Shown: positions 18,951-59,230 of the stretch, piece by piece
Layout: every line of letters begins with the position of its first letter
Numbering within the stretch: position 1 is the stretch's first letter
IMG/VR virus record: IMGVR_UViG_3300047491_001507
DNA from: a virus
Strand: one strand, 5' to 3'
DNA length: 64,000 nt
Notes under the pieces: generated by a model
Told to the model about the DNA's origin: nothing
Database searches by the model: none
What the model saw: only the letters and a program-made list of their open reading frames with translations
Position numbers and translations under genes: made by a program

Positions 18951-19871
18951 ATGAATGCGATAATACTCACCAAGAACAACAGCAAAACAATCCAGAAAAC
19001 ACTTGATTCCATATGTAATTGCTGCTCTAGAATTATTGTAGGAGATCTAGGAAGCTGTGATGGTACTTTAGATATTTGCCGTAATTATCAGGCTGAGATT
19101 CACTATTTAGTCGAATTTGACCGTGATCAAGCTAGAAACCGTCTTCAAAAAGACCTTTCAGGCTATAATTTGATGATAGAACCTTGGGAAATAATACTAA
19201 AACAAGATGAAATAGCCCTGACAAGTGATTGTTATTATGTGAAACTATTAAAAGATAAGACGATTACTAAAGAAATCAGACTATGGAAAGGATTTCAAGA
19301 ATTTGTTAATCCTACATACGAATGCATCAAATCGACTACAAATTCTGAAATTGATTTGATTTTATATAGCTTTGCCAATAGAGATCTGTTAAGTGACTTG
19401 GAATCAATCAAGAAATGGAAAGAAACAAAGCCATCTGCCTTCCAACCTTATTACTACGAAGCATGTATCTACTTGACTTTAGGGGATCATGAAAAGTTTT
19501 TAAATGCCATTCAACATTATTTATTTTTAAACAGAACACCCAGCATTTCCACAATTATGAGCCATTATTATATGGCTTACGCATATATCTGTAAGAAAGA
19601 AGTCAAAAAGGCTTTACAAAACATCAATATTTGTTTAAGTTATTGTCCATTAATGGCTGAGTTTTGGTGTATTTTGGGAGATGTTTATTATCATTTATTG
19701 AAAAAATTTGACGAAGCTATCGAATTTTATGAAAATGCTATGATTTTAGGAGCAAAAAGGCTAAAAACAGATAAGTATCCTATTGATCTAACCAAATACA
19801 AAGAATATCCCGAAAAAATGATAGCCAGTTGTAATAAAATCAAGGAAACACAAGGTATTTATGTCAGATAA
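18951..19871 (+). CDS. glycosyltransferase family 2-like N-terminus fused to a helical (TPR-like) C-terminal region
   Basis: MNAIILTKNNSKTIQKTLDSI...IIVGDLGSCDGTLDI resembles the GT2 N-terminal nucleotide-binding motif; upstream ORF 18809..19006 may be an N-terminal extension. Confidence 0.4.
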   Translation: MNAIILTKNNSKTIQKTLDSICNCCSRIIVGDLGSCDGTLDICRNYQAEIHYLVEFDRDQARNRLQKDLSGYNLMIEPWEIILKQDEIALTSDCYYVKLLKDKTITKEIRLWKGFQEFVNPTYECIKSTTNSEIDLILYSFANRDLLSDLESIKKWKETKPSAFQPYYYEACIYLTLGDHEKFLNAIQHYLFLNRTPSISTIMSHYYMAYAYICKKEVKKALQNINICLSYCPLMAEFWCILGDVYYHLLKKFDEAIEFYENAMILGAKRLKTDKYPIDLTKYKEYPEKMIASCNKIKETQGIYVR

Positions 19872-24293: not shown

Positions 24294-24310
24294 AATAGGA
24301 TTCTTTGACA

Positions 24311-24317
24311 CTAAATA
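24311..24317 (+). promoter_or_regulatory. CTAAATA motif 7 nt upstream of the paralog-2 ATG
   Basis: ttctttgacactaaataacttattATG. Confidence 0.3.
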
Positions 24318-24324
24318 ACTTATT

Positions 24325-27778: not shown

Positions 27779-27779
27779 G

Positions 27780-29477: not shown

Positions 29478-29483
29478 TAAATA
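29474..29483 (+). promoter_or_regulatory. ATAATAAATA (T4 late-promoter TATAAATA-like) about 16 nt upstream of the paralog-5 ATG, followed by SD GGAG
   Basis: catataataaatagtgtggagtattacgATG. Confidence 0.3.
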
Positions 29484-29498
29484 GTGTGGAGTATTACG

Positions 29499-31202
29499 AT
29501 GGTTTCATTTAAAGAATTCTTTTTTATTGAGGCTGGTTTAGAACATCGGCCTTTTAACAAATTTAAGCAATTAGAAGAAATTGCCAATAAATTGAAACAA
29601 GAAGGAATTCCTGAAGCCAATATCTGGATTACATTCACCAATGTGCCTAGAATTTCTATCTGGCCTAGAACAGAAAACAAAGAACAAGAAACCCCAATGG
29701 CATTATATGGCTACCCCATTAAAATCGTCATAGACAAGAACACGGATTTTAGTTATTTTGCATCAAAAAGACCATATATTGTTGTTTTTATCGTCAATGA
29801 AGACATTAAAGATATAGGCATTAAAGACAAAAATTTCGATGTAAATCAATACAAAATAGATATTGATAGTGCGAAGATTTTAGAATCAGTTTATAGAAGC
29901 CTTCCTACAGAAGGAATCGAAGAAGAAAAATGCTTAAAAGAAATCTACGAATATTTGTTGCGATGTAGACACTTTGCATTTTTAGAGCTTTTACATAGTA
30001 CTAGTCAAGCAGCATTCCACGCAAAACAAAGTGTTTGTTACGAAGCTTTTTGTGAACTAAAAGGCAAAGACAGCATATTTGGAGGTGCCGTGGATGAAGT
30101 GTATGGCAGTGTGCATCATTCGGGGAAATTCTGGGTTCAACTGTCTACAGAGACAATAGAAGCAATCAAATACAATCCTAAGTTCAATTTCTTATTAAAG
30201 TACATCAAATCTCCTTTGTTATATGGCAAAGATGCTCAAGAATTTGATGCTTTAGTCAGAAAACCTTCTTCAGGCATTGACCCGTCTAAAATAAACGAAT
30301 CTAAGTTATTTGAAAAAGCCAAAAGTCTTGTTACTAATTTTAAAGCCGAATATGATAGAGTAGAAAAAGAACAGTTAACAAATCTTATCAGTAAGGATTT
30401 TCCCAAGAAAAAGGGGTTGATGGAAATAGCTAATGAATATGATTTGAATATAGGCTTGGCTTTGTCTAAAGCTACAGATATTTGGTACTTAAAGGCTTCA
30501 GAAGGAAGTGTTTTGCCCAGAAATAAAGATGAATTCGTATATCGTGTGACTGAAGAATTGGCTCGTCAATGGGCAAGACAAGATGGAAAAGATGGGCATT
30601 GGCCAGGAAGATGGAGAAGATTATTGATGCGACTTGGTTATTCAAGTATTGCTGATTTGCAACATTCCGGTGCAATTCACAGAGCAGAACCTACACAAGG
30701 TGCATTTTTTGATACTTCCAAGCTAGAAATGATAACGGTGATTCGTAATTTGCCTTATATGAGTGATAGATTTAAACAAAACAGCGTATCAGAAAAGCTG
30801 CCAGATGACACAGAAATGCCTATATTGCAGGACAAATCTATTGTTCACACAAGGCAATCATCCACATCTCATCGGTATGAAGATTCGCCAGAAAGAAAAG
30901 CTTACAAGGGTCTTTTAAATAAAGCAACGGAGCGTGCAAATGATTTGAGAAGGACCATAACAACTATTAAGTCGTATCCCATAGATTATCAATATACAAT
31001 ATCGCTTCATGGATTTCGAAAAAGTGTAAATGCATTTATTGCGAGTTGTGATTGGATTTTAAGAAATAGTCCTGGCATATTAGACAATATCAAGCAAATA
31101 ATAGATATAGATCCAAACAAAGTAAGACCAGAATTTCATTCCATACTCAACAGTTTAAAGTCTAAAATTAGAGAAAAAGAACAAAGTGTCATAGGAGCTT
31201 AA
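29499..31202 (+). CDS. paralog 5 of the tandem family
   Basis: Track ORF starts 29484 (MWSIT), but the family-conserved start MVSFKEFFFIE|AGLEH is at 29499 with an SD upstream; VYRVTEELARQWARQDGK, SGAIHRAEPTQGAFFDTSKLEM. Confidence 0.55.
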   Translation: MVSFKEFFFIEAGLEHRPFNKFKQLEEIANKLKQEGIPEANIWITFTNVPRISIWPRTENKEQETPMALYGYPIKIVIDKNTDFSYFASKRPYIVVFIVNEDIKDIGIKDKNFDVNQYKIDIDSAKILESVYRSLPTEGIEEEKCLKEIYEYLLRCRHFAFLELLHSTSQAAFHAKQSVCYEAFCELKGKDSIFGGAVDEVYGSVHHSGKFWVQLSTETIEAIKYNPKFNFLLKYIKSPLLYGKDAQEFDALVRKPSSGIDPSKINESKLFEKAKSLVTNFKAEYDRVEKEQLTNLISKDFPKKKGLMEIANEYDLNIGLALSKATDIWYLKASEGSVLPRNKDEFVYRVTEELARQWARQDGKDGHWPGRWRRLLMRLGYSSIADLQHSGAIHRAEPTQGAFFDTSKLEMITVIRNLPYMSDRFKQNSVSEKLPDDTEMPILQDKSIVHTRQSSTSHRYEDSPERKAYKGLLNKATERANDLRRTITTIKSYPIDYQYTISLHGFRKSVNAFIASCDWILRNSPGILDNIKQIIDIDPNKVRPEFHSILNSLKSKIREKEQSVIGA

Positions 31203-36305: not shown

Positions 36306-36710
36306 GTGAAAAATACACACAAGAGCAAATTAGACAAGAAAAAATCTAATGAGAATTCCAAGTATTGGAAAAACAAACTTTGGGCTTTAGTCCGAAAAAT
36401 AGTCTTAGAACGAGATGGACATTGCTGTGTAATGTGCGGTAATACAGAAAAAACTAACGTCCATCACATTATAGATCGAAGATATAAGCCTTTTAGCTTT
36501 GAAACTAATAATCTTATCAGTCTTTGTCCTAAATGTCACAAATTTGATTCTTTCAAATCAGTTCATTGCAATCCTGCTCGATTTCTAAAGTTCTTAAAAA
36601 CGTTCAGAAAAGAACAATGGAAATGGATCAACGAACATTGCAATGAACCATTTGAAGAAAAACAGGAAACTATTTTGGAAATATACAACAGGTTAAACGA
36701 ATCAACCTGA
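36306..36710 (+). CDS. HNH endonuclease
   Basis: CCVMCGN...NVHHIIDRRYKP...NLISLCPKCHK (C-x2-C ... HH ... N ... C-x2-CH). Confidence 0.65.
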   Translation: MKNTHKSKLDKKKSNENSKYWKNKLWALVRKIVLERDGHCCVMCGNTEKTNVHHIIDRRYKPFSFETNNLISLCPKCHKFDSFKSVHCNPARFLKFLKTFRKEQWKWINEHCNEPFEEKQETILEIYNRLNEST

Positions 36711-37895
36711 AATAATTCTAAAAGTTCCTTCTAAATCAAACTTTGTTTGCTCCAATAATTCTATTAATTGTTCATATTCACCAGTACCGAGATTGCTCTC
36801 ATTAAGATGATTGACTGTTTCTGTTTCAATAGACTGTGCCAAATTAATTATTTCTTGGCACAAATCTTGATACCTAGAATCATTCGGTGGTGTAAATAAA
36901 CCCTCTTCTAGAGTGAATTCCTCTTCCTCTTTTACCGGTGGAGCTTTCTTAGGTTTTTTGACAATTACATTCTCAAAATCGTCCAATTGAGTGATTACCG
37001 GTAAGTTTTTCTCTGCTTTTATGATGTTTTTAATGGGTTCTGGCTTCCATTCTTTGGTACTTTCTGAGGTTTCGATTTTAAATCGAAGCAATTGTGCATT
37101 ATCGGTCATCATGGGATTGTTTTCATCAGTCCAAAATGCCCAAATTTCATTAGTTGGAATCTCTATTAATTTTTCATTGCCAGAACAAGCCTTGGTTAGC
37201 CATTTTGAAGATGCAACTGCCTTAAACCAAATAAATGGCTCCGAAAAAAAGAAAATTTGACCCAACAATTCCCTAAGATCACAAATCCATAAAGGACGTT
37301 TTTCATTCCTAAATAGGAACAAATAACGCAAATCATGCTCTAGTCTCTCTCCTAAAGCAACAGCCATTCCTCCTTGGGAAATGACCGACCAAATGCTTTT
37401 AATTCCATTAATACGTCGAGAAATTTCCGAATTGACCTTCAAATCCTCAATTTCTGCGTCCATGTTGTGTTCAAATAGTCTCAACAACACTTCCGAATCA
37501 GTATTGGATTTGATTTTGTATTTCTCTTTAAGAAATCGAAATTCACTAAGTGTTCCGTTGTGAATCATGCCGATTCGCTTGTCTTCACTCACAAATGGGT
37601 GATTATTGCAGTTGTCAGAGGCATTTCCTCCACCAAATGAAGTAGCTCGTGCATGAACCAGCATCATGTTTAATTGGAGCTTTTTAATCTTTTTCCAAAA
37701 AGTTTTTTGGATGAAATCTGTAGCTCTAATCGGTTCTTTGTGATACAAAATTCTTCCATCATTGCCAGTCTCGGTTCCCCAAACTCCAGAGGCATCTGTT
37801 CCACGGATTTCCAGAAAATCAAATAGACAAGTTATCAACTCGTAAGTGATTTTGGGATTTTTAGACTGACCAATATATCCAGCGATACCACACAC
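36702..37895 (-). CDS. class-II (Ntn) glutamine amidotransferase domain protein
   Basis: N-terminal catalytic MCGIAGYIG; RGTDASGV and IHNGTLSEF resemble the GATase-II motifs (RGPD.SG, HNGEIYN); no AsnB-type synthetase SGGLDSS motif in the C-terminal half. Confidence 0.55.
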   Translation of the reverse strand: MCGIAGYIGQSKNPKITYELITCLFDFLEIRGTDASGVWGTETGNDGRILYHKEPIRATDFIQKTFWKKIKKLQLNMMLVHARATSFGGGNASDNCNNHPFVSEDKRIGMIHNGTLSEFRFLKEKYKIKSNTDSEVLLRLFEHNMDAEIEDLKVNSEISRRINGIKSIWSVISQGGMAVALGERLEHDLRYLFLFRNEKRPLWICDLRELLGQIFFFSEPFIWFKAVASSKWLTKACSGNEKLIEIPTNEIWAFWTDENNPMMTDNAQLLRFKIETSESTKEWKPEPIKNIIKAEKNLPVITQLDDFENVIVKKPKKAPPVKEEEEFTLEEGLFTPPNDSRYQDLCQEIINLAQSIETETVNHLNESNLGTGEYEQLIELLEQTKFDLEGTFRIISG

Positions 37896-38676: not shown

Positions 38677-39378
38677 ATGAGAAATTTTATTGAATGGCTC
38701 ACAGAAATGAGCGATGGCAATGTCGGTGGAGATAACTTTTTCTGGGGCGATAATGGCTCTGGAGGCTCAACTGTGGCTGCTGGCGTTTTGATTTTGGCCG
38801 CTGATACTAAAAGAATTTGCCTAAATCACAGAAGTAATTATATCAACAATTGGATTGATGGCAAGAGCGTTGATAGAAGTTATGGAGCAGGATTGCATCA
38901 CTTAGATGATCCAGAATTTAATAATATGTACATGAAAGGATGCTGGGGAACAATTGGTGGAGCATTAGGTGGAAGAAATCCTTTAGAAGCCGCCAAAGAC
39001 GAAGTTGAAGAGGAAATAGGCTATGGCGGTCCTTGGTTGAAAATAGAAAAATCTATGACTTGGAACATTCCTGTTAAAGGCAAAAATATAAATTACCAAA
39101 ATTTCTTGGGCTTAGTTCCTAAAGAGAAAAGCGTAATGTTTAAACCCTCCCCAGGATCATCTTCTGGCTTGAGTCATGCAATGGAATCGTTGGGGATTGA
39201 TTGGGCTACTTTAGATGAAATCAAAGGCAAAAATGCATTTAAAGGAATTAGATTTCATGATGGATTGACCAAGCTTTTATCAAATCCGTCTGTAATTGCT
39301 CAAATTGAAAAAATGTTGGGTTTAAATAATCAAGATCAAGACATGCCTAACTCTCAACCTAATCAGCCTAGTATTTGA
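38677..39378 (+). CDS. Gly-rich protein with targeting-like N-terminus (MRNFIEWLTE) and a degenerate Nudix-like box
   Basis: GGRNPLEAAKDEVEEEIGY approximates G-x5-E-x7-REUxEExGU with wrong spacing, so weak. Confidence 0.35.
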   Translation: MRNFIEWLTEMSDGNVGGDNFFWGDNGSGGSTVAAGVLILAADTKRICLNHRSNYINNWIDGKSVDRSYGAGLHHLDDPEFNNMYMKGCWGTIGGALGGRNPLEAAKDEVEEEIGYGGPWLKIEKSMTWNIPVKGKNINYQNFLGLVPKEKSVMFKPSPGSSSGLSHAMESLGIDWATLDEIKGKNAFKGIRFHDGLTKLLSNPSVIAQIEKMLGLNNQDQDMPNSQPNQPSI

Positions 39379-39871: not shown

Positions 39872-41479
39872 TCAAATCCCTGCAAACAATTGCCGTTCAA
39901 TTGCTGCTTGTATAAGCCCTGCAAACAAAGGACTTGCAGAATCCAAACGACTTTGGAACTCAGGATGAGCCTGCGTACACACAAAATAAGGATGTAAGTC
40001 CTTTTTCAATTCCATCATTTCGACCAATCCGCTTTGAGGATTACGCCCAGAAACAACAAAACCTTGCTCCTCATACCGTTCTGTATAATCATTATTGACC
40101 TCAAAACGGTGCCTGTGACGCTCACTGACGACCTTTTTCTTGTATAGGTCCTTGATGATGCTGTCCTTCACCAGTTCGCACTCGTAAGCTCCCAGACGCA
40201 TTGTGCCGGATCGCTTGATCTTATCGTTCTGTCCCTCTACATAATGAATAACTGGATTTTCACATGTAATATTAAATTCCTGACTGTTTGCGTCTTTAAT
40301 GCCTAAAACATTTCTAGCAAATTCAATAACGGCACACTGCAAGCCCAAACAAATGCCCAAAAATGGTATTTTTCTTTCTCTACACATCTTAATTGCTTGA
40401 ATTTTGCCTTCTACAGATCGGGAATCAAAACCTCCAGGCACAATCACGCCATCTACATTCAAATCCACCTGACCCTTTTCAAATAATTCAGCATTGATCC
40501 ATTCAATCTTTACCTTGGCATGGTTATGCACTCCAGCATGAAGAATCGCTTCCTTCAAACTGAGATATGCTTCGTCACAATTATCGTATTTGCCAACTAC
40601 ACCAATAGTTACATTGGCCAAATCATTGCCAAACACATATCGTTCTACTAATTCTCGATATTTGTGAATTCTGATGCCTCGTCGCTGAATGTGAAAACGA
40701 TCAACAATAAGATCGTCTACGTGTCTTTTGTAAAATTCAATGGGAACCTGATAAATTGTCTCTACATCAGGTGCCTCAAATACCCCAGAACGATGCACTC
40801 CGCTCATTTTGGAGATTTTATCCAAAATTTTCTCGGGAATTTCACGATCACAACGACACAGCAAAATTTCTGGTATTAATCCATCATGCCGTAATGCTCT
40901 GACAGCATTTTGTAATGGCTTTGTCTTGAATTCTTTTACCGTAGGATTCCAGATAACCGGAGCGACCATGATAATCAACACATCATCTGGATTTTTGTGT
41001 TTAAATTGACTGATGGATTCAAAAAATGCTGCACTTTCAAAATCCCCGACTGTTCCACCAATTTCTACAATTGTAATATCATGTCCTTGTGAAACTTCTA
41101 CTAATCTCTGTTCAATTTTGTTGATGACATGAGGTACAATTTGTACAGAAGACCCTAAATGTTTACCTTGCTCCTCTTCTTCTAGCAGTTCTTTGTACAA
41201 AATACCACTAGTAAAGATGTTTTGTTTACACATCTGAATACCAGTGATTCGTTCTATATGGCCAAGATCAAGATCCACTTCTGTGCCATCGTTGAGAATA
41301 AAGACTTCGCCATGTTCTTTTGGTGCTAGAGTTCCAGCATTTATGTTCAAATAAGGGTCACACTTGATGTATTGCATATCAAGTCCACGCATTTTAAGCA
41401 ATAAAGCTAAAGATGCTGCTCCAATGCCCTTACCTGTTCCACTATAAACGCCACCAACGATAATAACAAATTTACTCAT
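39872..41479 (-). CDS. pyrG: CTP synthase
   Basis: N-terminus MSKFVIIVGGVYSGTGKGIGAASLALLLKMRGL parallels PyrG; GATase catalytic GICLGLQ; GKYDNCDEAYLSLKEAI. Confidence 0.85.
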   Translation of the reverse strand: MSKFVIIVGGVYSGTGKGIGAASLALLLKMRGLDMQYIKCDPYLNINAGTLAPKEHGEVFILNDGTEVDLDLGHIERITGIQMCKQNIFTSGILYKELLEEEEQGKHLGSSVQIVPHVINKIEQRLVEVSQGHDITIVEIGGTVGDFESAAFFESISQFKHKNPDDVLIIMVAPVIWNPTVKEFKTKPLQNAVRALRHDGLIPEILLCRCDREIPEKILDKISKMSGVHRSGVFEAPDVETIYQVPIEFYKRHVDDLIVDRFHIQRRGIRIHKYRELVERYVFGNDLANVTIGVVGKYDNCDEAYLSLKEAILHAGVHNHAKVKIEWINAELFEKGQVDLNVDGVIVPGGFDSRSVEGKIQAIKMCRERKIPFLGICLGLQCAVIEFARNVLGIKDANSQEFNITCENPVIHYVEGQNDKIKRSGTMRLGAYECELVKDSIIKDLYKKKVVSERHRHRFEVNNDYTERYEEQGFVVSGRNPQSGLVEMMELKKDLHPYFVCTQAHPEFQSRLDSASPLFAGLIQAAIERQLFAGI

Positions 41480-41558: not shown

Positions 41559-43853
41559 TTATGCATAACTAACAGTACATGCTCCACCTGCACATGCAAT
41601 ATCTTGTGTAAATTCCACATTGTTCTGTTCTTCGATCATCAATGTGTAATCCACTTCCTTATATTCCCGCTTTAGAGCATTCCAATAGTGTAAATTATTG
41701 ATGTCTTTCAGGCAATAGGTCATTTGTTTGACATCACCACCAAAATAACGATCTGCAAATTGCTTGGCTCTACGAATCCAATCCGTCTGTGCCTCAAACT
41801 TTTTAGACTCTTCTTCGAAAATCTTACGATGCAAGAACAATATTACACTTTTATCTTCTTCATCATTATAATTGCATTCTGTTTCAAGTTCGGGTTTTTT
41901 AAGCTCCTCAAAACCCAACAATGTATTACATGCCTTCCACAAATCATTATCAAAAACATGCAAACCATCTACAATCAAACCACTAGCAAACATACTTCCA
42001 TCCCCATACATCTGTTGAATCTCTTTGGGAGTATAAATTGCCGTAAATGGAGCTTGTGGATAGTCTTTATCGCCTGTAATTGGCAGCAAACTAATACCAG
42101 TAAAACTTGAACGATTATCATAAATGTAATCAGTTACAGCATCCCATTCATCTGGTCTAACTGTAATCGTGTTAGATACATTGTGCATTAGCCAATCTTG
42201 AGTGCAACGTTCCTTTTTGGTTCCTGCTGCCACCCAATTATTCTGAGTTAATTTAACATGCTCCAATAAAGTCAAAGCATCAATATCATTCTTGGTTTTA
42301 GAGCCCTTAGGCACTTCAATACAAAATGAAAGAACTTCATCTGTCTTATTGGCAGACCAAACCGACTTCTCTACCGCCAAGGGATTAATTGACTTAAAAT
42401 ACTGTAGTGGTGGCTCCAAATGATTGCCCTGACTTCTACGAATGTAGCGATTGGCATGATGAGCATGAATTCCAGATGATGTGGAAAGTAAACAACTTGT
42501 AGTTCCACTTGGCTTTACACAAGTTGCTCTGGCACAAGGATTTATGCCGATTTTTGCAGCTATTTCTTCGTTGACTTTAAGAATGTATTTGGCGACTTTT
42601 CTTTGAGTTTCTGGATTGAACAGAATATCTGGGCTATCCATCATTCCGGTAATCGAAACACCCAATAAAGCTTCACGTTTGAGGATGTTTTCGGTGGTTT
42701 CGCCAAGATACCTCATGGTAGTGTAACCAGCTTGACATGTGCCAATAATGGCAGCGGCTTCAGCGGCAAGCATGAAATCGTCTTCAGTTTTGCATTTCTT
42801 ACCATTAATTTCACAGAGATTACAGAATTGGAAGCCTGATTTGCCAGTTTCGATATCCACAGGATACATGGAGATTTCACAACAGGGATTTACGATTAAT
42901 TCTGTACTATCGGAAAATACAAATCCTGGCTCTCCAAATTCCCTCACCGACTTCATTAATTTAATAAAATCTTCTTTACTAGTCTTATTTCGGATCAATA
43001 AAGCGGAATTATTGGAACGTCCTCGTTGTGGATTTTCAATAAACCAATTGCCCGTCTTAGCAGTTGCCATTTCCATATCATCTGGTGAAAATAATACAAT
43101 TGTAGCACTTCGACGGATACCTCCTGATAAAACCGCATCTGAGGCATGCATAATTGTGTCATAAGCATGAATCGGACGGAATTCTCTTTCTGCAATCGCT
43201 TTTTCTAATAAACTACGGATATTTTCGAGTGCGATTTCTAATGGCTTGTATCCTGGGGCTTTTCCACATCCCGATGACAATAGAGATCCTTCAGGACGAA
43301 TCTGGCTATAATCAAATTTGACGTTGGTATTGTAATACTTCTCAAAAATTGGTTCATCATCAAAATACGAACTTAACAACACGCCAAGGGAGTCTGCCCA
43401 ACCTTCGATACTATCTGGAATAACATAAATGCTATTGAATAATTTTTTGCCAGACAATCTAGCCGCAGAAAGAGGTGGTAATTTAGCAATATGATGCTTT
43501 TGAACAGATAATCCCACTCCACAACCACAAAGAAGCACCCAAAAACACTCTTGAAACGCTCTTAAGCGATCACAATATGTGGCTGAACAATTGTAGATGC
43601 GGCAATGTTTTTTCTCAATTGGTGAGCCACCATATTGTAAAGCTCGTTGCGATCCCAAAACCCTTCTCTGTCTGACCTGTTCAAATGACCAATCAATCTC
43701 TTTAGTAATCTGAGGATATCTATTCAAATGCATGTTTCTAACACGCTCTACCGCTTCTGACCACGTTTCTCGACGCTTTTTTTCAGGAAGATAACGGGCA
43801 TATTTAGATACAAATGTATAATCTTGTAACGCTTTCATCGACATTATAATCAC
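41559..43853 (-). CDS. ribonucleotide reductase catalytic subunit (probably class II, NrdJ-like)
   Basis: 764 aa; active-site-like VNPCCEISM and FCNLCEING (NPCGE / NxCxE thiyl-radical motifs); no NrdB-like small subunit in the window; class assignment tentative. Confidence 0.7.
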   Translation of the reverse strand: MIIMSMKALQDYTFVSKYARYLPEKKRRETWSEAVERVRNMHLNRYPQITKEIDWSFEQVRQRRVLGSQRALQYGGSPIEKKHCRIYNCSATYCDRLRAFQECFWVLLCGCGVGLSVQKHHIAKLPPLSAARLSGKKLFNSIYVIPDSIEGWADSLGVLLSSYFDDEPIFEKYYNTNVKFDYSQIRPEGSLLSSGCGKAPGYKPLEIALENIRSLLEKAIAEREFRPIHAYDTIMHASDAVLSGGIRRSATIVLFSPDDMEMATAKTGNWFIENPQRGRSNNSALLIRNKTSKEDFIKLMKSVREFGEPGFVFSDSTELIVNPCCEISMYPVDIETGKSGFQFCNLCEINGKKCKTEDDFMLAAEAAAIIGTCQAGYTTMRYLGETTENILKREALLGVSITGMMDSPDILFNPETQRKVAKYILKVNEEIAAKIGINPCARATCVKPSGTTSCLLSTSSGIHAHHANRYIRRSQGNHLEPPLQYFKSINPLAVEKSVWSANKTDEVLSFCIEVPKGSKTKNDIDALTLLEHVKLTQNNWVAAGTKKERCTQDWLMHNVSNTITVRPDEWDAVTDYIYDNRSSFTGISLLPITGDKDYPQAPFTAIYTPKEIQQMYGDGSMFASGLIVDGLHVFDNDLWKACNTLLGFEELKKPELETECNYNDEEDKSVILFLHRKIFEEESKKFEAQTDWIRRAKQFADRYFGGDVKQMTYCLKDINNLHYWNALKREYKEVDYTLMIEEQNNVEFTQDIACAGGACTVSYA

Positions 43854-47595: not shown

Positions 47596-48069
47596 ATGGC
47601 TAAAGCTACGTTTTGGAAAGCAAAGGAAGTTGAAGAAGTTGCAGTAAATTTGATCGAAAAATACCATCAGCATTTATTGGATTTCAATGTCAGAATAGAA
47701 TATATGTTTACTGACAAAACCCCGAAGAACAATGGAAAAGAAGTTTGGGGTTGTTGTCGTAAAGTCTCATCTCTTAACGCATATCTTGCTAAAGACAATG
47801 TAGATGGAGATCCATTCTTTGTTATTGTAATCAGTAAAGATATCTGGGATATACTTCCTGCTGAAAAACGAGAAGCTTTAATAGACCATGAATTGTGCCA
47901 TGCTTTAGCCGAAGCTAATCAAAAAGAAGACGAAGATGATGCCGAACCGGTGAAATTGTCAATTCGTCCTCATGATTTGGAAGAATTTGCCTGCATTGTA
48001 CGCAGACATGGCACTTGGAAAAATGATATCGAAGACTTTATTAAAGCAAGTCGAGAAAAAATTTCATAA
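47596..48069 (+). CDS. hypothetical protein with HExxH (HELCH) motif; possible zinc metallopeptidase-like
   Basis: REALIDHELCHALAEA; SD aaggaga upstream. Confidence 0.3.
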   Translation: MAKATFWKAKEVEEVAVNLIEKYHQHLLDFNVRIEYMFTDKTPKNNGKEVWGCCRKVSSLNAYLAKDNVDGDPFFVIVISKDIWDILPAEKREALIDHELCHALAEANQKEDEDDAEPVKLSIRPHDLEEFACIVRRHGTWKNDIEDFIKASREKIS

Positions 48070-49346: not shown

Positions 49347-50786
49347 TCACTCTATAGTTAAATATTGATCTAGATCTTTTGAGTTAACCATCAGTTTTTT
49401 AATATCAAAAATTGCTCTTACAGAATTATAGTAAGGAGCTTTGTCCATTCCTATGCCCCAAAATGGCAAACTCACTTCTTCCCCTAACAAACAAAAACAA
49501 GGCTTATCCATTGCTCCAGCAATATGCATGTGCAATGTATCCACTGTTATAATACAATCTGACTCTTTAATATAAGAACATAATTCTAAAATATCCTTAC
49601 AAGGCAAGAATTTAACCGGTAAATCGTATTGTTCGATATCTATTTGAATTTCTTCAATTAAATCTGTTCTTTGAGGAATATAAAAATCGCAATTTTCATA
49701 ACTTTTCAATAATGTAGCCAAATCCTGCATGTTGATTTTTTTCATGGAGGATAAATGCTTTGCTGATATCCAATTTATTATAACCCGTTGTTTCTCAGAA
49801 CTTGGCAGTTCTACACTAGGAATTATATCTAAATATTTTTCATACTTAAAAGGAAGATGTTCCATCAATTGATATATGTTCATGATATAATCAACATTTA
49901 CCAATTCTCTACTATCAAATCCTGGCAGCAATACCTCATCAATATACAATAATTGATTTACTACACAATGCAGATCATGATATGCCGCAAATTTAATTCT
50001 ACAACTAGGATACAGTGTCTTTAATTGATTGACTAATCCTAACAGCCATATATTATCGCCCAAACCCTGTTCTGAATATAATAAGACGGTTTTACCATCT
50101 AAACTACTTCCATCCCACTTATTGGGAGGTGTCCAAGGCACAAATACATGTCCTACTTGTTCAAAAATCTTGTATTCATAAATAAAAACCGGACTTTCTA
50201 TGATCTTATTTGAATTTCCAAATATTGTCAGTAAATCTGGAGAATTGGGGAATCTTCTTACTAATGACAGACAAAATGGATGCAAACCAAAGTACAACAC
50301 CGCTTCTTTGTTTTTTCCCAATGCTTTTGTGTATTCTTCAAATTTATTGCTATATCCTATTAGCTCTATTCTTAAGGACGCTGTCGTTTCGTTTTTAGGA
50401 TCTAATGCTTCAGATAACATCAAATGCTTTTCTGCTTCTATCAGTTTTCCCATACGAGTGTATATTTTGCAAAAAGTCTGATGCAAGAAAGCATCTGTAT
50501 TATCAATTGCTTGACATTGACGAGCATAATCCAATGCTTTGTCATATTCTTTAATATCCATGTATGCATTGGCTAGGTTTACTAAAGCTGTCTTTTTTGT
50601 CAAATATGAATCCAATGCTCTTTTAAGCGTTTCAATGCCTTCTGTGTGGTTTCCTTTTAAGCACATTTCAGAACCAACCTTCAAGAAGGCATATGGATTG
50701 AAAGGCACTACAGAATGCAATACTGGCTCATTTTTCTCGTTCATTGTCAATTCTAATCCCAATTCGTCCAAAGTTTTATTCGACAT
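49347..50786 (-). CDS. TPR-repeat protein fused to a GT-B glycosyltransferase (GT9/heptosyltransferase-like)
   Basis: N-terminal TPR-like helices (ALVNLANAYMDIKEYDKALDYARQCQAID...); C-terminal EQGLGDNIWLLGLVNQL and CIITVDTLHMHIAGAMDKPCFCLLG resemble the GT9 G.GD / DSG.mHlA motifs. Confidence 0.5.
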   Translation of the reverse strand: MSNKTLDELGLELTMNEKNEPVLHSVVPFNPYAFLKVGSEMCLKGNHTEGIETLKRALDSYLTKKTALVNLANAYMDIKEYDKALDYARQCQAIDNTDAFLHQTFCKIYTRMGKLIEAEKHLMLSEALDPKNETTASLRIELIGYSNKFEEYTKALGKNKEAVLYFGLHPFCLSLVRRFPNSPDLLTIFGNSNKIIESPVFIYEYKIFEQVGHVFVPWTPPNKWDGSSLDGKTVLLYSEQGLGDNIWLLGLVNQLKTLYPSCRIKFAAYHDLHCVVNQLLYIDEVLLPGFDSRELVNVDYIMNIYQLMEHLPFKYEKYLDIIPSVELPSSEKQRVIINWISAKHLSSMKKINMQDLATLLKSYENCDFYIPQRTDLIEEIQIDIEQYDLPVKFLPCKDILELCSYIKESDCIITVDTLHMHIAGAMDKPCFCLLGEEVSLPFWGIGMDKAPYYNSVRAIFDIKKLMVNSKDLDQYLTIE

Positions 50787-50827
50787 TTAAATGCTCCTTT
50801 ACTATTTTACCTTAAAGGAGTAAGTAA

Positions 50828-52201
50828 ATGTCGAGAATTTTTGTAGATACTTCTGAGAATGGTGCTAGTTTTGGTTTAGGAGATTCTATTTGTTTTATTC
50901 CTGCTTTGCGTGCCTTAAGGGAAAAGCACCCCCACGATGAAATTGTACTAGTCACCTATTTTGCTCATATTAATGTTTTTGCGTATTGTGATTTTGTAGA
51001 TTATGTTTTGCCATTAGATTTTCTTAATCCAGGCGATTGGACCTATGGCTACAATGTGTCTGTAGATGAACGATTTAATATCGTCAATCCCAAGCACACT
51101 TTCCTCCAACATCACAAAGAACATATGGCAAAAGCCAATATTCGACATATGCTCCTTGAATCTCCCGAAGGTCATTCTTTGGATTATGAACTTTCCATTC
51201 GTGATCATGACAAAGAGCCTATTCAGAAATTTAAAGATGATATTCTGAAACAGGCCAAAGACAAGCCAATTGTGGCTATTTGTCCTTCCATTACCATGTA
51301 TAGCCGTATGTGGCCCAAACAACGATGGGAAGAATTGACCAAATTACTTCAAAAAAATAAATATTTTGTGGTTTCTATTGGTCATGCTGAAGATTTTGAG
51401 ATTGATGTGGATTATGATGCTCGTGGTAAATATCCTGTCCATTACATTCCTAAAATACTTGATATTTTTAAGTCTGTTATTCTTATTGATTCCGGTATGT
51501 TGCATGTTGCTTCTATAAATCAAAAAGTTCATATCACAATGATCTCTACCGGCAGATTTCCTCCAGAAGTTATCGTTCCCTACCGAAATGGCAAATGGGC
51601 TGATAATGTCACTATCATTCAACACAACTGCCCTCAAAAAGAAGCTTGTTTTAAAGAATACGCCAGTGAATTGAGCACTAATGACCATATTGAACGTAAT
51701 TTAAGAAAATACCAGCAAGAAAACAACAAACCGTTTCCACCTGAAGAATCCCAGTTGCTTTTGAAGTATGTTTGCTGGAACCACTGTCTTCGTGAAGAAA
51801 ATAAATTCATTTGTAACACTATTAATGCTCAAGATGTTTACAATGCTTTCAAGGATAAAGAATCGCAATTAGTAGCTTTGGAGAGCAAAGGATTTCCGGT
51901 TTATCACCAAGTACAGCCAACCTTTACTGAAGATTATAAGGTTTGGAAAGAAACCATATTTTTTAAAGGGGCAGAACATCGAACTTTTATTGATGCTCAT
52001 GAAATCAATAGCGTAGAGCTAATTACTGCCAAGGTCAAAATCATCAAAGACCTTTACCCCAAAAATCTACTTATAGTCATTGCTAGGAAGGATTTTGTGC
52101 CAATGCTGAAAGAATGTGCAGACATTTACCACACAATTCCCGTCGAATTCATTAAAAATAATTTTCGAATAGGCACCAAAGACAATTTCTTGAGATTGTA
52201 A
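50828..52201 (+). CDS. GT-B glycosyltransferase, GT9/heptosyltransferase-like
   Basis: FGLGDSICFIPALRALREKHP (G.GD...P.l.al) and ILIDSGMLHVASINQKVHI (DSG.mHlA). Confidence 0.45.
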   Translation: MSRIFVDTSENGASFGLGDSICFIPALRALREKHPHDEIVLVTYFAHINVFAYCDFVDYVLPLDFLNPGDWTYGYNVSVDERFNIVNPKHTFLQHHKEHMAKANIRHMLLESPEGHSLDYELSIRDHDKEPIQKFKDDILKQAKDKPIVAICPSITMYSRMWPKQRWEELTKLLQKNKYFVVSIGHAEDFEIDVDYDARGKYPVHYIPKILDIFKSVILIDSGMLHVASINQKVHITMISTGRFPPEVIVPYRNGKWADNVTIIQHNCPQKEACFKEYASELSTNDHIERNLRKYQQENNKPFPPEESQLLLKYVCWNHCLREENKFICNTINAQDVYNAFKDKESQLVALESKGFPVYHQVQPTFTEDYKVWKETIFFKGAEHRTFIDAHEINSVELITAKVKIIKDLYPKNLLIVIARKDFVPMLKECADIYHTIPVEFIKNNFRIGTKDNFLRL

Positions 52202-52328: not shown

Positions 52329-52796
52329 ATGAGAAATCTAATCAGTAGAGACATTGCTCCCAATCGTGACAATCTTTTGTTCCCACTTGAAACCGCTTTT
52401 GATGAATTCTTTCGTGAATTCTTTTCTTCAAATCCTATTTCTCGTGTTAAACAGGGCGGTTATCCAAAAATGAACGCTTCTGAATCAGAAAATGAATTAG
52501 TGTTAACATTGGCAGTTCCTGGGATGAAATCGGAAGATTTAGAATTGGTAATTGATCAAAACAACATATTGACTGTTCGTGGAAAAATGTCGGTAGATTA
52601 CCAATCGCCTGAAGGTAGTAAATATTACATCAGAGAATTGAGACAATCCGCTTTTGAGCGAAGTATACAGCTACCAGAATACGTGAGAGGCGATCCAAAA
52701 ACCTCTATGAAAGATGGTATTTTGACATTGACTTGGGAAACTGAACCTAAAGTTCCTAAAAACAATGTCAGAAAAATCAACATCGAACCTAGTTGA
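52329..52796 (+). CDS. small heat-shock protein (Hsp20/alpha-crystallin family)
   Basis: ACD-like LVLTLAVPGMKSEDLELVIDQNNILTVRGK ... GILTLTWETEP. Confidence 0.7.
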   Translation: MRNLISRDIAPNRDNLLFPLETAFDEFFREFFSSNPISRVKQGGYPKMNASESENELVLTLAVPGMKSEDLELVIDQNNILTVRGKMSVDYQSPEGSKYYIRELRQSAFERSIQLPEYVRGDPKTSMKDGILTLTWETEPKVPKNNVRKINIEPS

Positions 52797-52819: not shown

Positions 52820-52859
52820 GGAGCGAACGCTTTTTAGAAGCGTTCGCTCCAATATTTTT
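52820..52859 (+). terminator. rho-independent terminator after the Hsp20 gene
   Basis: ggagcgaacgc-tttttagaa-gcgttcgctcc followed by aatattttt. Confidence 0.55.
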
Positions 52860-52912
52860 AGCCAAAATTTTTTATTAACGCATAACTAATTTATTTGATA
52901 TTTGAGGAATCA

Positions 52913-54040
52913 ATGGAAGAAGATTGTAAAGAGCCTCCTGGTAGAGTGGCCGCTACTCTATATGAGCAATTGCCGAGTAGCGGTCGTAAGATTTTTGACT
53001 CAGCAACGAATGAAAATTGGAATGATTGGAAATGGCAATTTGCTAATCGATTAACTTCAGCCGATCTTGGAAATGTAGAATTTAAATTCCCTGTAGCAAT
53101 TACCCCTTATTATTTCTCTCTAATTAAAGATTATTCTCTCAACGATCCGATCTTTTCAATGTGCATGCCAAATCCCAGAGAATTATCGGAAATTATGCAT
53201 GCAGATCCATTAGGAGAAGATCAAATGATGCCAGTAAAAAATCTGGTTCATCGTTATAAAGATCGAGCTTTAATTATTACAACGACATTATGTTCTATGT
53301 ATTGTCGTTATTGCACCAGAAAACGTACCGTAGGATCAAAAGATCACATTCTTACTCAAGAAAATTTAGAAGAAATTACAAATTATCTTAAATCTCATCC
53401 AGAAATCACCGATGTCATCATTTCTGGAGGCGATCCAATGGTGTTTTCCACTAAAAAACTAGAACACATCATCAAAAAAATCAGATCTGTTTCTTCGGTT
53501 CAGGTCATTAGAATTGGCACTAAAGTGCCTGTTGTAATGCCAATGCGAATTAACAAACATTTGGCAAGTATGTTGTCAAAATACCATCCGATTTATGTCA
53601 ATACCCATTTTAATCATCCTAATGAAATTACTCCAGAATCCATGCAAGCTTGTAATATTCTAGCAAATCATGGAATTCCTGTGTCAAACCAGTCGGTTTT
53701 GCTTAAAGGGGTAAATGATGACAAGTATGTATTTGAAGAACTTTGCCGAAAACTCTTTAGAAACAGAGTCAGGCCATATTATTTATTCCAATGTGATCTT
53801 GTTAATGGAGTAGAGCATTTTCGCACTAGGGTTGCTCAAGGTATAGAAATTATGGAACACCTACGAGGTCGTTTGTCTGGAATGGCTATTCCTCAATTTA
53901 TTGTTGATAGTCCCAATGGACTAGGAAAAATTCCAGTATCGCCCAATTATGTGTTGTATCAAACTCCAGAAAAGTTTGTGCTAAGAAATTATCAAGGTAA
54001 ATTGGTGGAATATCCAGAAGTTAAGCAGTTAAGTCCATAA
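52913..54040 (+). CDS. KamA-family radical SAM enzyme (lysine 2,3-aminomutase / EpmB-like)
   Basis: CSMYCRYCTRKR (C-x3-C-x2-C), ISGGDP, and overall KamA-family layout; track ORF starts at TTG 52895, first ATG with SD gaggaa is 52913. Confidence 0.75.
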   Translation: MEEDCKEPPGRVAATLYEQLPSSGRKIFDSATNENWNDWKWQFANRLTSADLGNVEFKFPVAITPYYFSLIKDYSLNDPIFSMCMPNPRELSEIMHADPLGEDQMMPVKNLVHRYKDRALIITTTLCSMYCRYCTRKRTVGSKDHILTQENLEEITNYLKSHPEITDVIISGGDPMVFSTKKLEHIIKKIRSVSSVQVIRIGTKVPVVMPMRINKHLASMLSKYHPIYVNTHFNHPNEITPESMQACNILANHGIPVSNQSVLLKGVNDDKYVFEELCRKLFRNRVRPYYLFQCDLVNGVEHFRTRVAQGIEIMEHLRGRLSGMAIPQFIVDSPNGLGKIPVSPNYVLYQTPEKFVLRNYQGKLVEYPEVKQLSP

Positions 54041-54464
54041 GGACATAATCACTTGCTAATTTACTTCTTGATTTCAAGATTTTTGTTGCAAAAAAACCAG
54101 TTCCTTGGAAGAAAAGCAATGCAGGCAAATTTGTCTCTGGAACTCTTAATTTGATTTTTCGCCTTTTTTCGTTCAATTTTTTCTCTAATTTTTGAATCAT
54201 TGTTCGCCCTACACCTTGACGATGATAGGCGGGATGTACTGCTATGGTTAAAATTGTATAGTGGGTCTTTTCTAGGACATACATGATGTAGCCAATGATT
54301 TTTTCCTCCAACTCAACGACTAAGCCGATATTGTTTCTTTGATGCAAACAATATGTAAAATCATCTTCCTCCCATGGATATTCAAAATTCAATTCGTCTA
54401 TTTTCTGCATTTGTGGTAGATCATTGCGAATAGCCCAACGAATGTGCAAGTTTTGTAGATCCAT
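54021..54464 (-). CDS. GNAT-family N-acetyltransferase (RimI-like)
   Basis: Motif A IAVHPAYHRQGVGRTMIQKL; 20-nt convergent overlap with the KamA-like gene. Confidence 0.65.
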   Translation of the reverse strand: MDLQNLHIRWAIRNDLPQMQKIDELNFEYPWEEDDFTYCLHQRNNIGLVVELEEKIIGYIMYVLEKTHYTILTIAVHPAYHRQGVGRTMIQKLEKKLNEKRRKIKLRVPETNLPALLFFQGTGFFATKILKSRSKLASDYVLMDLTA

Positions 54465-54757: not shown

Positions 54758-55023
54758 CCCCAAATAAAGAATGTTACTTTGATTTCGGACAACTTGAGAT
54801 TGTTAATGCAAAGAAAGTGAAAGTTTTTGTCAAAAATGGACCTCGTGAATTAGAAGTGGGAGATATCATTGGCGGTAGACGGATTATCGCCATTAATATC
54901 AAAGGAATTAATTCAGACAACTTAGGAATTGGCATGAATGGCAAGATTACTCTCGATGGCATGCCAATGCTTACTATTGGCGTGCCATATGACAATATCA
55001 TTTCAAAACAATTTTTGTTTTGA
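54754..55023 (+). CDS. small hypothetical protein
   Basis: ORF track; ATGA overlap. Confidence 0.25.
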   Translation: MTPNKECYFDFGQLEIVNAKKVKVFVKNGPRELEVGDIIGGRRIIAINIKGINSDNLGIGMNGKITLDGMPMLTIGVPYDNIISKQFLF

Positions 55024-55534
55024 TGCGATATTGATTGCTGAAGACGATTTCATCTACTGTCACAGTAGTTCCTGAAAATTCTGTATTGCCTGCATACTTT
55101 TTGCCTGTTCCTTTTTTGACATAGGCAATTGTGCAGTGGGGCTCGTACTTTGGATGCGTCGAGCTAAAACTGCAATTTTTTCTTAATTTTTCATTTAGAC
55201 GATGTAAATCTTTACTTTCCACAGTGAATTTTACTACATCGTATTCTTCATTTTCAAAGACCGATGTTTCTTTGATTTCAAATGTAATAGGCTTTTCGCC
55301 TTTAACGACCTTTTTAACACGGTCTGGCGTTTTGTCGTGTAAACCATACAAAATAGTTACATGACAATCATCTTCTCTGCCATAATCTTCTATATCATAC
55401 ACATCAGAATCTGGAATTAATTTCTTTCCAAATTTCATTACTTTCTCAGCAAGGGCATGCGGCAAATTTACATGGGTTGACGAATATTCATGTTCTGTCT
55501 TCTCTAATAAAAACTGTTTCCAATTTCTCATCAT
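54998..55534 (-). CDS. 2H phosphoesterase (LigT-like) with targeting-like N-terminus (MMRNWKQFLLE)
   Basis: Two H-Φ-[ST]-Φ motifs, CHVTILYG and PHCTIAYV, about 75 aa apart in a 178-aa protein; CTAAATAAA 35 nt upstream and SD aaagg. Confidence 0.5.
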   Translation of the reverse strand: MMRNWKQFLLEKTEHEYSSTHVNLPHALAEKVMKFGKKLIPDSDVYDIEDYGREDDCHVTILYGLHDKTPDRVKKVVKGEKPITFEIKETSVFENEEYDVVKFTVESKDLHRLNEKLRKNCSFSSTHPKYEPHCTIAYVKKGTGKKYAGNTEFSGTTVTVDEIVFSNQYRIKTKIVLK

Positions 55535-57064: not shown

Positions 57065-57370
57065 ATGAATTTTAAGAGTTGGTTAGAGCAAAAAGAAGAA
57101 CCTATCTATTGCTTATGGCGAGAATATAAAGATTATGGAGAAATACACATTCTCCTAAGCAATATCCGACATATATTTGCTGCAAATCTAGATAATTTTT
57201 ATAACAAAAGAGACTTTGCTTCATGGAGAAAACAAAGCAAGATTCCCAATGCAAAATGGGTAGTTTGGCACAGAATTCAAGATGCTGTAGATCAAGGCTG
57301 GGTAGAACAAATAGAACCCAAAAAGCCTCCAAAAAAAGAAAGCCCTTTTAAACAAAAAAGACTTTTCTAA
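57065..57370 (+). CDS. small protein with targeting-like N-terminus (MNFKSWLEQKEE)
   Basis: N-terminal motif. Confidence 0.35.
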   Translation: MNFKSWLEQKEEPIYCLWREYKDYGEIHILLSNIRHIFAANLDNFYNKRDFASWRKQSKIPNAKWVVWHRIQDAVDQGWVEQIEPKKPPKKESPFKQKRLF

Positions 57371-57792
57371 TTATTGCTGCCAAAAACTACACACCAATAA
57401 ATTGTGTCGTTCTTATTGGTGGCAACTCCTACTCCCATATATTCAAATTTCGAATTTAGAATATTTCTACGATGTCCAGTAGAGCCCATCCAGGATTTCA
57501 TAACATCATTTTCTGTTTTTTGCCCAAAAGCAATGTTTTCGCCTCTGGTCTTAAAGTCAAAATTTAAATTTGAGTGTACCATCAATCCCTTTGTCGCCAT
57601 CCATTCTGCATGTTTTTGTGCAAATAAAGACAAAGAATCATCTAATTCTAGTGTTTTAATGTTTTTAGATGCTCTTTCTTTATTGTGTAAATATTGCACA
57701 TAGGTCTTGTTGACATCGACCTGTCTTACCTGGAAATGTTGGCTACAACCCACAAACAACAATAAAATTAACAAAAAGATTTTCTTTATCAT
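57367..57792 (-). CDS. CAP/SCP (PR-1-like, YkwD-type) domain lipoprotein
   Basis: Signal peptide plus lipobox-like MIKKIFLLILLLFVGC; CAP motifs HNKERA, GENIAFG, GHRRNILNSKFEYMGVG, YWCVVFG. Confidence 0.55.
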   Translation of the reverse strand: MIKKIFLLILLLFVGCSQHFQVRQVDVNKTYVQYLHNKERASKNIKTLELDDSLSLFAQKHAEWMATKGLMVHSNLNFDFKTRGENIAFGQKTENDVMKSWMGSTGHRRNILNSKFEYMGVGVATNKNDTIYWCVVFGSNN

Positions 57793-58198: not shown

Positions 58199-59230
58199 AT
58201 GTCAATTTTATTCATTTGCAAAAAACGCATTGATTATGGATGCAATCAAAGTGGTGTTGCTTATGGCTTAGGCAATTCTGCACAATTTATTGTCAATTAT
58301 CTTAACAAACAACATATCGAAGCAAAATTGGTATTTGCTGATGATGCAAATAGCATCGATAGATTAGTAACCGAATTTAACCCAGAATACGTCATTATTG
58401 AGGCGATTTGGGTGACTGCCAAAAAATTTCAAGAACTTCTTGCCATTCCTCGTCATCAAAATCGTGTTTGGATCGTTCGCTTACATAGTCGATTGTCTTT
58501 TTTGGCCAATGAAGGAATTGCTATTAAATGGCTTATGGAATATAAAGAAACAGTAATGCAGGATTACGATTTCTGGATTTCTCCAAATACCTACGAATTG
58601 GCTTGTGATTTACACGATTTGGGAATGCGATGCGTTTATCTTCCCAACATTTACTCGCCAATGGAAGGTTTTGATAATCCAAACAAAAAATTCAACAGAA
58701 TTTTAGACGTTGGATGCTTTGGAGCCGTTCGGCCTATGAAAAATAACCTTGCACAAGCGATGGCAGCGATAAAATTTGCCGATGATTTGAATATGCACAT
58801 GCGATTTCATATCAATTCTTCTCGGACAGAACAAAATGGAGATGCTGTTCTGAAAAATATTAGAGCCTTATTTTCAGATAGTTCCCATGAATTAGTCGAA
58901 CATAGCTGGCAAAAACACCATGATTTCTTGAATCTTGTTCGACAAATGGATATCGGCATGCAAGTCAGTTTCAGTGAAACATTCAATATCGTTGCAAGTG
59001 ATTTTGTACACTGTAATGTGCCAATTGTCGTTTCTCAACAAATCGACTGGATGCCTTTCTGGACAAAAGTCAAAGATCCTAATAGCACCGAAGAAATTAG
59101 AGATAAATTACACTTTGTTATGGCCACAAGCTGGCTGGGGTTACATAGATTAAATAAACAATGGCTGGACTACTCTAATTCAAATGCTGGAAGAGAATGG
59201 CTACAATTCCTAAATACTTCTAATGTTTAG
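58199..59230 (+). CDS. hypothetical protein (possibly a glycosyltransferase-like alpha/beta protein)
   Basis: ORF track; no clear signature. Confidence 0.3.
   Translation: MSILFICKKRIDYGCNQSGVAYGLGNSAQFIVNYLNKQHIEAKLVFADDANSIDRLVTEFNPEYVIIEAIWVTAKKFQELLAIPRHQNRVWIVRLHSRLSFLANEGIAIKWLMEYKETVMQDYDFWISPNTYELACDLHDLGMRCVYLPNIYSPMEGFDNPNKKFNRILDVGCFGAVRPMKNNLAQAMAAIKFADDLNMHMRFHINSSRTEQNGDAVLKNIRALFSDSSHELVEHSWQKHHDFLNLVRQMDIGMQVSFSETFNIVASDFVHCNVPIVVSQQIDWMPFWTKVKDPNSTEEIRDKLHFVMATSWLGLHRLNKQWLDYSNSNAGREWLQFLNTSNV

Follow-up and report, generated by a model that had tools for sequence, protein, structure and literature searches.

A short, probably active lysine 2,3-aminomutase beside an apparently independent GNAT gene in a large T4-like phage

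Beta-lysine is a precursor of osmolytes, a modifier of elongation factor P (EF-P) and a building block of antibiotics. A reference for enzymes that make it from L-lysine is the lysine 2,3-aminomutase (LAM) of Clostridium subterminale (structure 2A5H), a radical S-adenosylmethionine (SAM) enzyme of the KamA family. Classical KamA/AblA genes adjoin lysine-fermentation genes or ablB. In methanogens, AblA and the acetyltransferase AblB make the solute N-epsilon-acetyl-beta-lysine and are encoded by a co-directional operon; AblB proteins have ~270 aa. EpmB (YjeK) also uses free lysine, lacks the Zn site and the C-terminal domain of the classical enzymes and is an active LAM. Here, we describe a KamA-like gene and a convergent GNAT N-acetyltransferase gene in the virus record IMGVR_UViG_3300047491_001507. 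The sequence analysed (the window) covers 64 kb of a genome whose length is 306 kb or more. It is part of a large T4-like myovirus, as shown by genes for a tail sheath, gp15, gp19, a baseplate protein and gp46/47-like SbcCD. Our preferred reading, with a probability of roughly 60%, is that KamA is a stand-alone functional LAM turning host lysine into beta-lysine, and that the GNAT gene is an incidental, independent neighbour.

The initial annotation had assigned the first gene to the KamA family, which was confirmed. The protein scored 283.4 bits with the family model TIGR00238 (cutoff: 199.2), and Pfam found Radical_SAM and LAM_C, the latter matched only over positions 1–59 of 127. The motifs named in that annotation, CSMYCRYCTRKR and SGGDP, were both present, and its domain assignments were borne out by Pfam (Radical_SAM plus LAM_C for KamA, Acetyltransf_1 for the GNAT). 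Residues 7–368 aligned with Clostridium LAM at 46–48% identity (E=2e-111). An AlphaFold2 (AF2) model of KamA (pLDDT 77.7) superposed on 2A5H with a TM of 0.79 (E=3e-40), and the next-best radical-SAM enzymes reached a TM of ~0.45 or less.

The active site is complete and lysine-specific (Table 1). The Fe-S cysteines, R136, D295, D332 and K339 were invariant in the phage clade, and all catalytic and lysine-binding residues were kept in 80 of the 84 viral homologues. In the KamA family, the SGGDP segment is the glycine-rich SAM-binding element. The residues for lysine specificity (D295, D332 and R136) were all present; in glutamate 2,3-aminomutase, the equivalents of Asp293 and Asp330 are replaced. 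As all mechanism-defining residues of LAM are present, the reaction from L-lysine to beta-lysine is predicted. The same chemistry as in Clostridium LAM is predicted because the fold and the active-site residues (the Fe-S cysteines, R134, D293, D330 and the lysine K337, which binds pyridoxal 5'-phosphate (PLP)) are shared. The window KamA is probably an active LAM.

By analogy to Clostridium LAM, the [4Fe-4S] cluster on C127/C131/C134 would reductively cleave SAM and give a 5'-deoxyadenosyl radical. Free L-lysine would be held at its carboxylate by R136 and at its epsilon-amine by D295 and D332, and it would form an aldimine with PLP, which would rest on K339. The alpha-amino group would move to C3, giving beta-lysine. 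The most likely role of KamA is that of an auxiliary metabolic gene, which would divert host lysine to beta-lysine during infection. Speculatively, beta-lysine might then be consumed by a pathway of the host, for which the ATP-grasp/GNAT cassette described below is the most plausible candidate, or it might accumulate or act itself. The GNAT would most likely acetylate a protein amino terminus or another amine.

The window KamA is a short form. The Zn ligand C268 of LAM is replaced by Asp, and the protein ends five residues past the equivalent of residue 368, where the classical C-terminal Zn domain (~45–60 aa, carrying the other Zn cysteines) would begin. Together with a score below the equivalog cutoff, these two features separate it from classical AblA/KamA: it reached 429.1 bits with TIGR03820 (cutoff: 525.4), and seven classical KamAs used for calibration reached 600–646 bits. 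Its scores were also below the cutoffs of the models for EpmB (TIGR03821: 239.3 vs 369.3 bits; Salmonella EpmB: 525), glutamate 2,3-aminomutase (TIGR04368: 400.6 vs 650 bits) and arginine 2,3-aminomutase (TIGR04468: 333.9 vs 600 bits). The equivalog cutoffs discriminate: classical KamAs and Salmonella EpmB pass their own models. Unlike the classical genes, the phage gene adjoins neither lysine-fermentation genes nor ablB. JGI automatic annotation and two GenBank phage records already call the phage KamA a lysine 2,3-aminomutase. The sole output of PADLOC was a trivial radical-SAM motif match to pVip.

A further difference to Clostridium LAM is the N-terminal tail of ~26 aa (52913–52990), which contains an EPPG motif and is disordered in the AF2 model. 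Such tails with one or two EPPG/EPPS motifs, seen also at the N-termini of P0003–P0032, were common to the phage clade and to KamAs of the bacterial cassette in the Planctomycetes–Verrucomicrobia–Chlamydiae (PVC) group.

In bacteria, the cassette pairs a short or Zn-less KamA with a Ddl-like ATP-grasp ligase; in many cases these are followed by another ATP-grasp and by a GNAT of ~160 aa, which is sometimes fused to the second ligase. It was found in PVC bacteria, Chloroflexota, Ignavibacteria, Bacteroidales and Firmicutes; in Firmicutes and Bacteroidales, only one ATP-grasp and a short KamA downstream of it are left. Of 84 cellular loci, most of them obtained by scanning genomes, 21 had the cassette, as had 42 of 80 independent loci from metagenomes; none of the 42 loci with a C268-type KamA had it. 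Cellular KamAs without C268, including almost all short cellular forms, adjoined a Ddl-like ATP-grasp ligase. Examples of the cassette are L014:6001–10020, L016:6001–9937 and ~60 further loci (e.g. L092–L095, L108, L118, L143, L153, L165 and many of L173–L252). No further gene was conserved around the cassette, and literature searches for it found nothing relevant. By likeness to Ngg, the GNAT/ATP-grasp enzyme of N-acetylglutaminylglutamine amide (NAGGN) synthesis, the cassette product may be an N-acetylated beta-lysine peptide.

The phage KamA resembles the cassette KamAs in the absence of C268, and several cellular members are equally short. Its closest cellular relatives were found in PVC bacteria (53–55% identity). 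The phage differs from the bacterial cassette in having the aminomutase alone and a GNAT from outside the cassette GNAT family. If an ATP-grasp-associated KamA subfamily is defined (a definition of our own, not a curated one), the window KamA belongs to it by tree placement and by loss of C268, but has no adjacent ATP-grasp.

The initial annotation had suggested a phylogeny for distinguishing KamA, EpmB and AblA clades. The neighbour-joining tree, rooted with EpmB, was distance-based and had no support values, and it lacked methanogen AblA, Bacillus YodO, BlsG and glutamate 2,3-aminomutase. The clade of the window KamA (the window clade) had the cassette KamAs of PVC bacteria as its sister group, and the classical C268 clade with 2A5H lay elsewhere in the tree. 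Most viral KamAs interleaved with cassette-linked forms, and EpmB was a distant outgroup. On these sequence relationships, the phage KamAs appear to derive from the same lineage as the cassette KamAs.

A KamA had also been called unusual in a phage. The gene is indeed rare overall, but it is recurrent in large phages. With tblastn, genuine phage genome records with the gene numbered 14 (nine Pseudomonas putida jumbo phages, three huge-phage assemblies and two Vibrio phages), and a pattern scan of IMG/VR identified it on 73 viral contigs, many of 100–466 kb. The viral KamAs (84 sequences) were mostly short forms without C268. A protein identical to the window KamA is publicly recorded as P0001 and is encoded on a 306 kb contig. 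When 20 kb of the window were compared with phages by megablast, no match was obtained, and a scan of metagenomes for more closely related phages found none above 51%. Literature searches for phage KamA returned no relevant study in the searchable literature.

No partner gene conserved across the viral KamA loci was found, and synteny was limited to narrow sub-lineages. The complete genomes of KamA-bearing phages contained no homologue of the Ddl-like ATP-grasp or of EpmA/GenX, and neither efp nor epmA was found in them or in the flanks of the viral KamA loci. In the window, no ATP-grasp homologue was found at E<1e-3, and Pfam scans of its larger open reading frames (ORFs) found no EF-P and no EpmA-type ligase. 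Hence, the check for an EpmA/PoxA-like ligase or EF-P that had been suggested in the initial annotation was negative for the window and for the complete KamA-bearing phage genomes.

Some sub-lineages had features of their own. One viral contig only (L047:3181–5302; IMGVR_UViG_3300035701_000086) carries a cassette-type ATP-grasp directly upstream of KamA and overlapping it; it may be an intermediate between cassette and stand-alone gene or a misclassified cellular fragment. In the P. putida vB_PpuM phages (L009:1–9062) and in Vibrio phage GR7B (L010:498–9461), KamA is the third gene of a conserved block (~700 aa, ~380 aa, KamA and ~145–160 aa). This block lies directly upstream of topoisomerase II and, in GR7B, also downstream of queC. 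Pfam found no domains in the partners of KamA in the block, and the KamAs of these jumbo phages are a distant lineage (36–38% identity). In two relatives of the window clade, KamA follows the capsid gene gp23 within ~2 kb, and relatives of this phage encode tRNA synthetases, RtcB and PTH2. On several related phage contigs, genes for mobile endonucleases (GIY-YIG, LAGLIDADG and HNH) lie on the flanks of KamA. Homing endonucleases may contribute to the shuffling of the KamA neighbourhood.

The second gene of the pair belongs to the GNAT superfamily (Acetyltransf_1: 63.4 bits; cutoff: 20.7). Its best NCBIfam match was RimI (TIGR01575), with a score of 71.1 bits, which is below the cutoff of 86.4. 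Its top PDB matches were RimI (9MTO with 57 bits, and 5ISV), YpeA and archaeal Nat enzymes. None of its 16 NCBIfam matches at E≤0.01 was an AblB-type model. We rejected the window GNAT as a diverged cassette GNAT: on a profile of 33 cassette GNATs it scored 26.9–29.1 bits, like the RimI controls (28.1 and 19.4), and the members scored 136–248 bits. In direct comparisons, it reached 56.8 bits with RimI and 21.3 bits or less with any cassette GNAT. No relatives were found in 5.8 billion proteins (a word-filtered search, which returned only the protein itself) or in IMG/VR, and a local iterative search with a GNAT hidden Markov model added nothing.

Like RimI, the GNAT has 147 aa and the acetyl-CoA-binding motif. 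Unlike RimI, it is a phage-encoded orphan with a score below the cutoff and a different catalytic pair. Glu103 and Tyr115 were reportedly proposed as the catalytic residues in a structure paper on Salmonella RimI. In alignments with 5ISV and 9MTO, these positions are Arg107 and Phe119 in the window GNAT. Because the proposed catalytic Glu and Tyr are replaced, we regard the protein as RimI-like, yet not with confidence as a RimI orthologue. The initial annotation had named a generic RimI homologue unrelated to beta-lysine as the finding that would speak against its proposal, and this is essentially what was found. With AblB/YodP, the GNAT shares the fold and the position next to a KamA-family gene. 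It differs from them in being convergent with KamA instead of operonic, in being much shorter than AblB and in matching no AblB model.

We checked whether a GNAT next to KamA is a common arrangement in phages. Pfam was run on 125 genes directly adjoining KamA in a non-redundant set of 65 viral KamA genes and identified one GNAT. It is encoded in Vibrio phage vB_VcorM_GR7B (L010:4821–6454; Acetyltransf_1, E=6e-11), 5 nt downstream of KamA and on the same strand, an arrangement that is more AblAB-like than that of the window. The GR7B GNAT is unrelated to the window GNAT (19.6 bits), and its insertion was not found in the sister P. putida phages. In five independent relatives of the window clade, no GNAT was found beside KamA, and in the phage collection the KamA-bearing and the GNAT-bearing records did not overlap. 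In the window, the two genes are encoded on different strands and have separate ribosome-binding sites; as they are convergent, they are not co-transcribed. Most likely, the GNAT is an independent neighbour of KamA and not a demonstrated partner, and the adjacency is an accident of a tightly packed genome. Of the new phage auxiliary function claimed in the initial annotation, KamA as an auxiliary gene stands, with a role uncharacterised in the searchable literature; the unit of KamA and GNAT is not supported.

The initial annotation had compared the two genes to AblA/AblB, so that KamA and a convergently recruited GNAT would make N-epsilon-acetyl-beta-lysine as a solute, as in methanogens. The lysine-specific active site of KamA, the acetyl-CoA-binding motif of the GNAT and the repeated occurrence of KamA with GNATs of different families (in the bacterial cassette and in GR7B) are consistent with this. 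We nevertheless consider it unlikely, as the GNAT is a RimI-like orphan that resembles neither AblB nor the cassette GNATs, has no IMG/VR homologue and is found beside KamA neither in close relatives nor in 64 of 65 other viral lineages. In addition, the two genes converge, unlike those of the co-directional ablAB operon. With 66 loci, the two adjacencies seen are close to the number expected by chance (~1.3 in a rough estimate, if ~1% of phage genes encode GNATs). The other comparison made there, with EpmB, would have the phage enzyme supply (R)-beta-lysine for beta-lysylation of EF-P and thereby boost the translation of polyproline phage proteins. EpmB has the same short architecture without C268 and C-terminal domain, and translation genes are frequent in large phages, the tRNA synthetases, RtcB and PTH2 of the phage relatives included. 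However, identity to EpmB was only 29% (vs 46–48% to Clostridium LAM), the TIGR03821 score was far below the cutoff and position 330 is Asp instead of the Glu of two EpmB references. Given also the distant position of EpmB in the tree and the lack of efp and epmA around viral KamAs and in the complete phage genomes, this explanation is very improbable, and the EpmB-type pair was not borne out.

KamA could also act on the host without a dedicated pathway: depletion of lysine or a flood of beta-lysine would perturb translation, peptidoglycan synthesis or a lysine-dependent defence. In every phage lineage that was examined, KamA stands alone and lacks a conserved partner, which fits such a role, as does its position among host-interaction genes such as that for an Acb1-like phosphoesterase. 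No positive evidence was found for it, and the nearest cellular relatives are members of a biosynthetic cassette, which favours a product-forming role; host shut-off is thus an improbable explanation of the gene. A modification of phage DNA or the virion with beta-lysine or a related amine might be expected from the jumbo-phage block beside topoisomerase II, from queC in GR7B and from the two relatives with KamA close to gp23. As the neighbours of KamA in the window are HSP20, glycosyltransferase and GNAT genes, as no hydroxymethylase, kinase or transferase for DNA was found nearby and as no domains were recognisable in the proteins encoded beside KamA in the jumbo-phage block, we rate this idea as very improbable. 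A broader proposal is that the short KamA of many unrelated large phages was captured from the bacterial cassette and drives the synthesis of an N-acetylated beta-lysine solute or peptide, either host-encoded or, in this phage, assisted by the GNAT. We regard this as possible but doubtful.

Several points weigh against a stand-alone LAM with an incidental GNAT neighbour. KamA is linked to unrelated GNAT families across life (AblB, the cassette GNAT and the GR7B GNAT), and this might be a further case of convergent recruitment, although an unlikely one. The acceptor specificity of a GNAT is not readable from its sequence. A ligase or another consumer of beta-lysine could lie outside the visible 64 kb of the genome. 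An ATP-grasp/GNAT cassette on the host side is hypothetical and speculative. Without the Zn site and the C-terminal domain, the activity of KamA could differ; EpmB likewise lacks both and is active. For the short form, activity, stereochemistry and quaternary state are predicted from sequence.

The ORF pair, its convergence and the overlap of the 3' ends were as described in the initial annotation (Table 1). The overlap comprises only the non-conserved C-terminal tails of both proteins, and the KamA tail 'KQLSP' lies past the conserved end of the family. The stop codons are TAA at 54038–54040 (+) for KamA and TAA at 54021–54023 (read on the minus strand) for the GNAT. Overlaps of 4–26 nt were seen in at least five further convergent gene pairs of the window (36702–36710, 39368–39378, 48064–48069, 54998–55023 and 57367–57370). 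Short convergent overlaps are routine in this genome, and that of KamA and GNAT is unremarkable. An in-frame alternative start of KamA is TTG at 52895. The ATG at 52913 is favoured, with GAGGAA 3 nt upstream and in agreement with the public gene call of P0001 (375 aa). The ATG of the GNAT gene has GAGGAG 8 nt upstream. Directly 5' of KamA lies a gene for an HSP20/alpha-crystallin small heat-shock protein (52329–52796, +).

Table 1. Positions in the window of the KamA and GNAT genes, their functional motifs and the adjoining signals
Feature	Position	Strand	Description or basis
Hairpin terminator	52820..52850	+	Strong (14-bp stem, then T-run); between upstream HSP20 gene and KamA
Shine-Dalgarno sequence of KamA, GAGGAA	52904..52909	+	Direct sequence reading
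KamA-like coding sequence (CDS)	52913..54040	+	375 aa; ORF, Pfam Radical_SAM + LAM_C
CSMYCRYCTR motif	53291..53320	+	C127, C131, C134 (C125, C129, C132 of Clostridium LAM), [4Fe-4S]/SAM cluster; R136 (R134), lysine carboxylate; 2A5H alignment
SGGDP motif, S171–P175	53423..53437	+	Aligned to SGGDA of 2A5H; invariant in two alignments
D295	53795..53797	+	D293 of LAM, ligand of lysine epsilon-amino group; 2A5H alignment
D332 to K339	53906..53929	+	D330, second ligand of lysine epsilon-amino group, to K337, PLP Schiff-base lysine; 2A5H alignment
Convergent 3' overlap of KamA and GNAT CDSs	54021..54040	.	20 nt
RimI-like GNAT N-acetyltransferase CDS	54021..54464	-	147 aa; Pfam Acetyltransf_1, E=3e-17
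Acetyl-CoA pyrophosphate-binding motif of GNAT, H-R-Q-G-V-G-R (residues 81–87)	54204..54224	-	Aligned with Q-R-Q-G-L-G-R of RimI

Other genes of the window were also recorded. Two genes downstream of the GNAT, a 2H-phosphoesterase is encoded (54998–55534, -). It matched Pfam Acb1, a cyclic-nucleotide phosphodiesterase directed against the cyclic-oligonucleotide-based antiphage signalling system (anti-CBASS), with 32.5 bits (cutoff: 27) and also 2_5_RNA_ligase2; the gene is likely an anti-defence gene. Two divergent genes at 49347–52201 have family-9 (heptosyltransferase-like) glycosyltransferase domains, one of them with N-terminal TPR repeats, and glycosyltransferase-like ORFs were also found at 18951–19871 and 58199–59230. 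These genes suggest phage-directed glycan modification. A CAP/SCP-domain protein (57367–57792, -) has a lipoprotein-like signal peptide (…LLLFVGCSQ) and would be secreted or envelope-anchored.

Five tandem paralogous ORFs of 565–583 aa lie at 22593–31202 (+). They are 32–40% identical to the first one and share many invariant residues, and they had no Pfam or PHROG match. The auxiliary genes at 36702–37895, 39872–41479, 41559–43853, 948–1562 and 18217–18759 (all -) encode a glutamine amidotransferase-domain protein, a full CTP synthase, a ribonucleotide reductase, a protein of the uracil-DNA glycosylase superfamily and a protein with sigma-70 region 2. Homing endonucleases of the LAGLIDADG and HNH types are encoded at 8191–9072 (-) and 16646–18076 (-).

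The window KamA is a short, cassette-derived, non-equivalog subtype within a well-known enzyme family. A phage pair of the AblA/AblB type should not enter annotation. The comparison with the phage KamA brought out a cassette that is widespread and apparently uncharacterised in bacteria. We know of no role of beta-lysine in phage infection. An active KamA would mean that beta-lysine is made by several lineages of large phages, and the recurrence of the gene raises the real but modest question of what they do with it. If the broader proposal, with capture from the cassette and synthesis of an N-acetylated beta-lysine compound, were true, it would add a class of phage auxiliary metabolism not recognised before and would offer a way to approach what the bacterial cassette makes.

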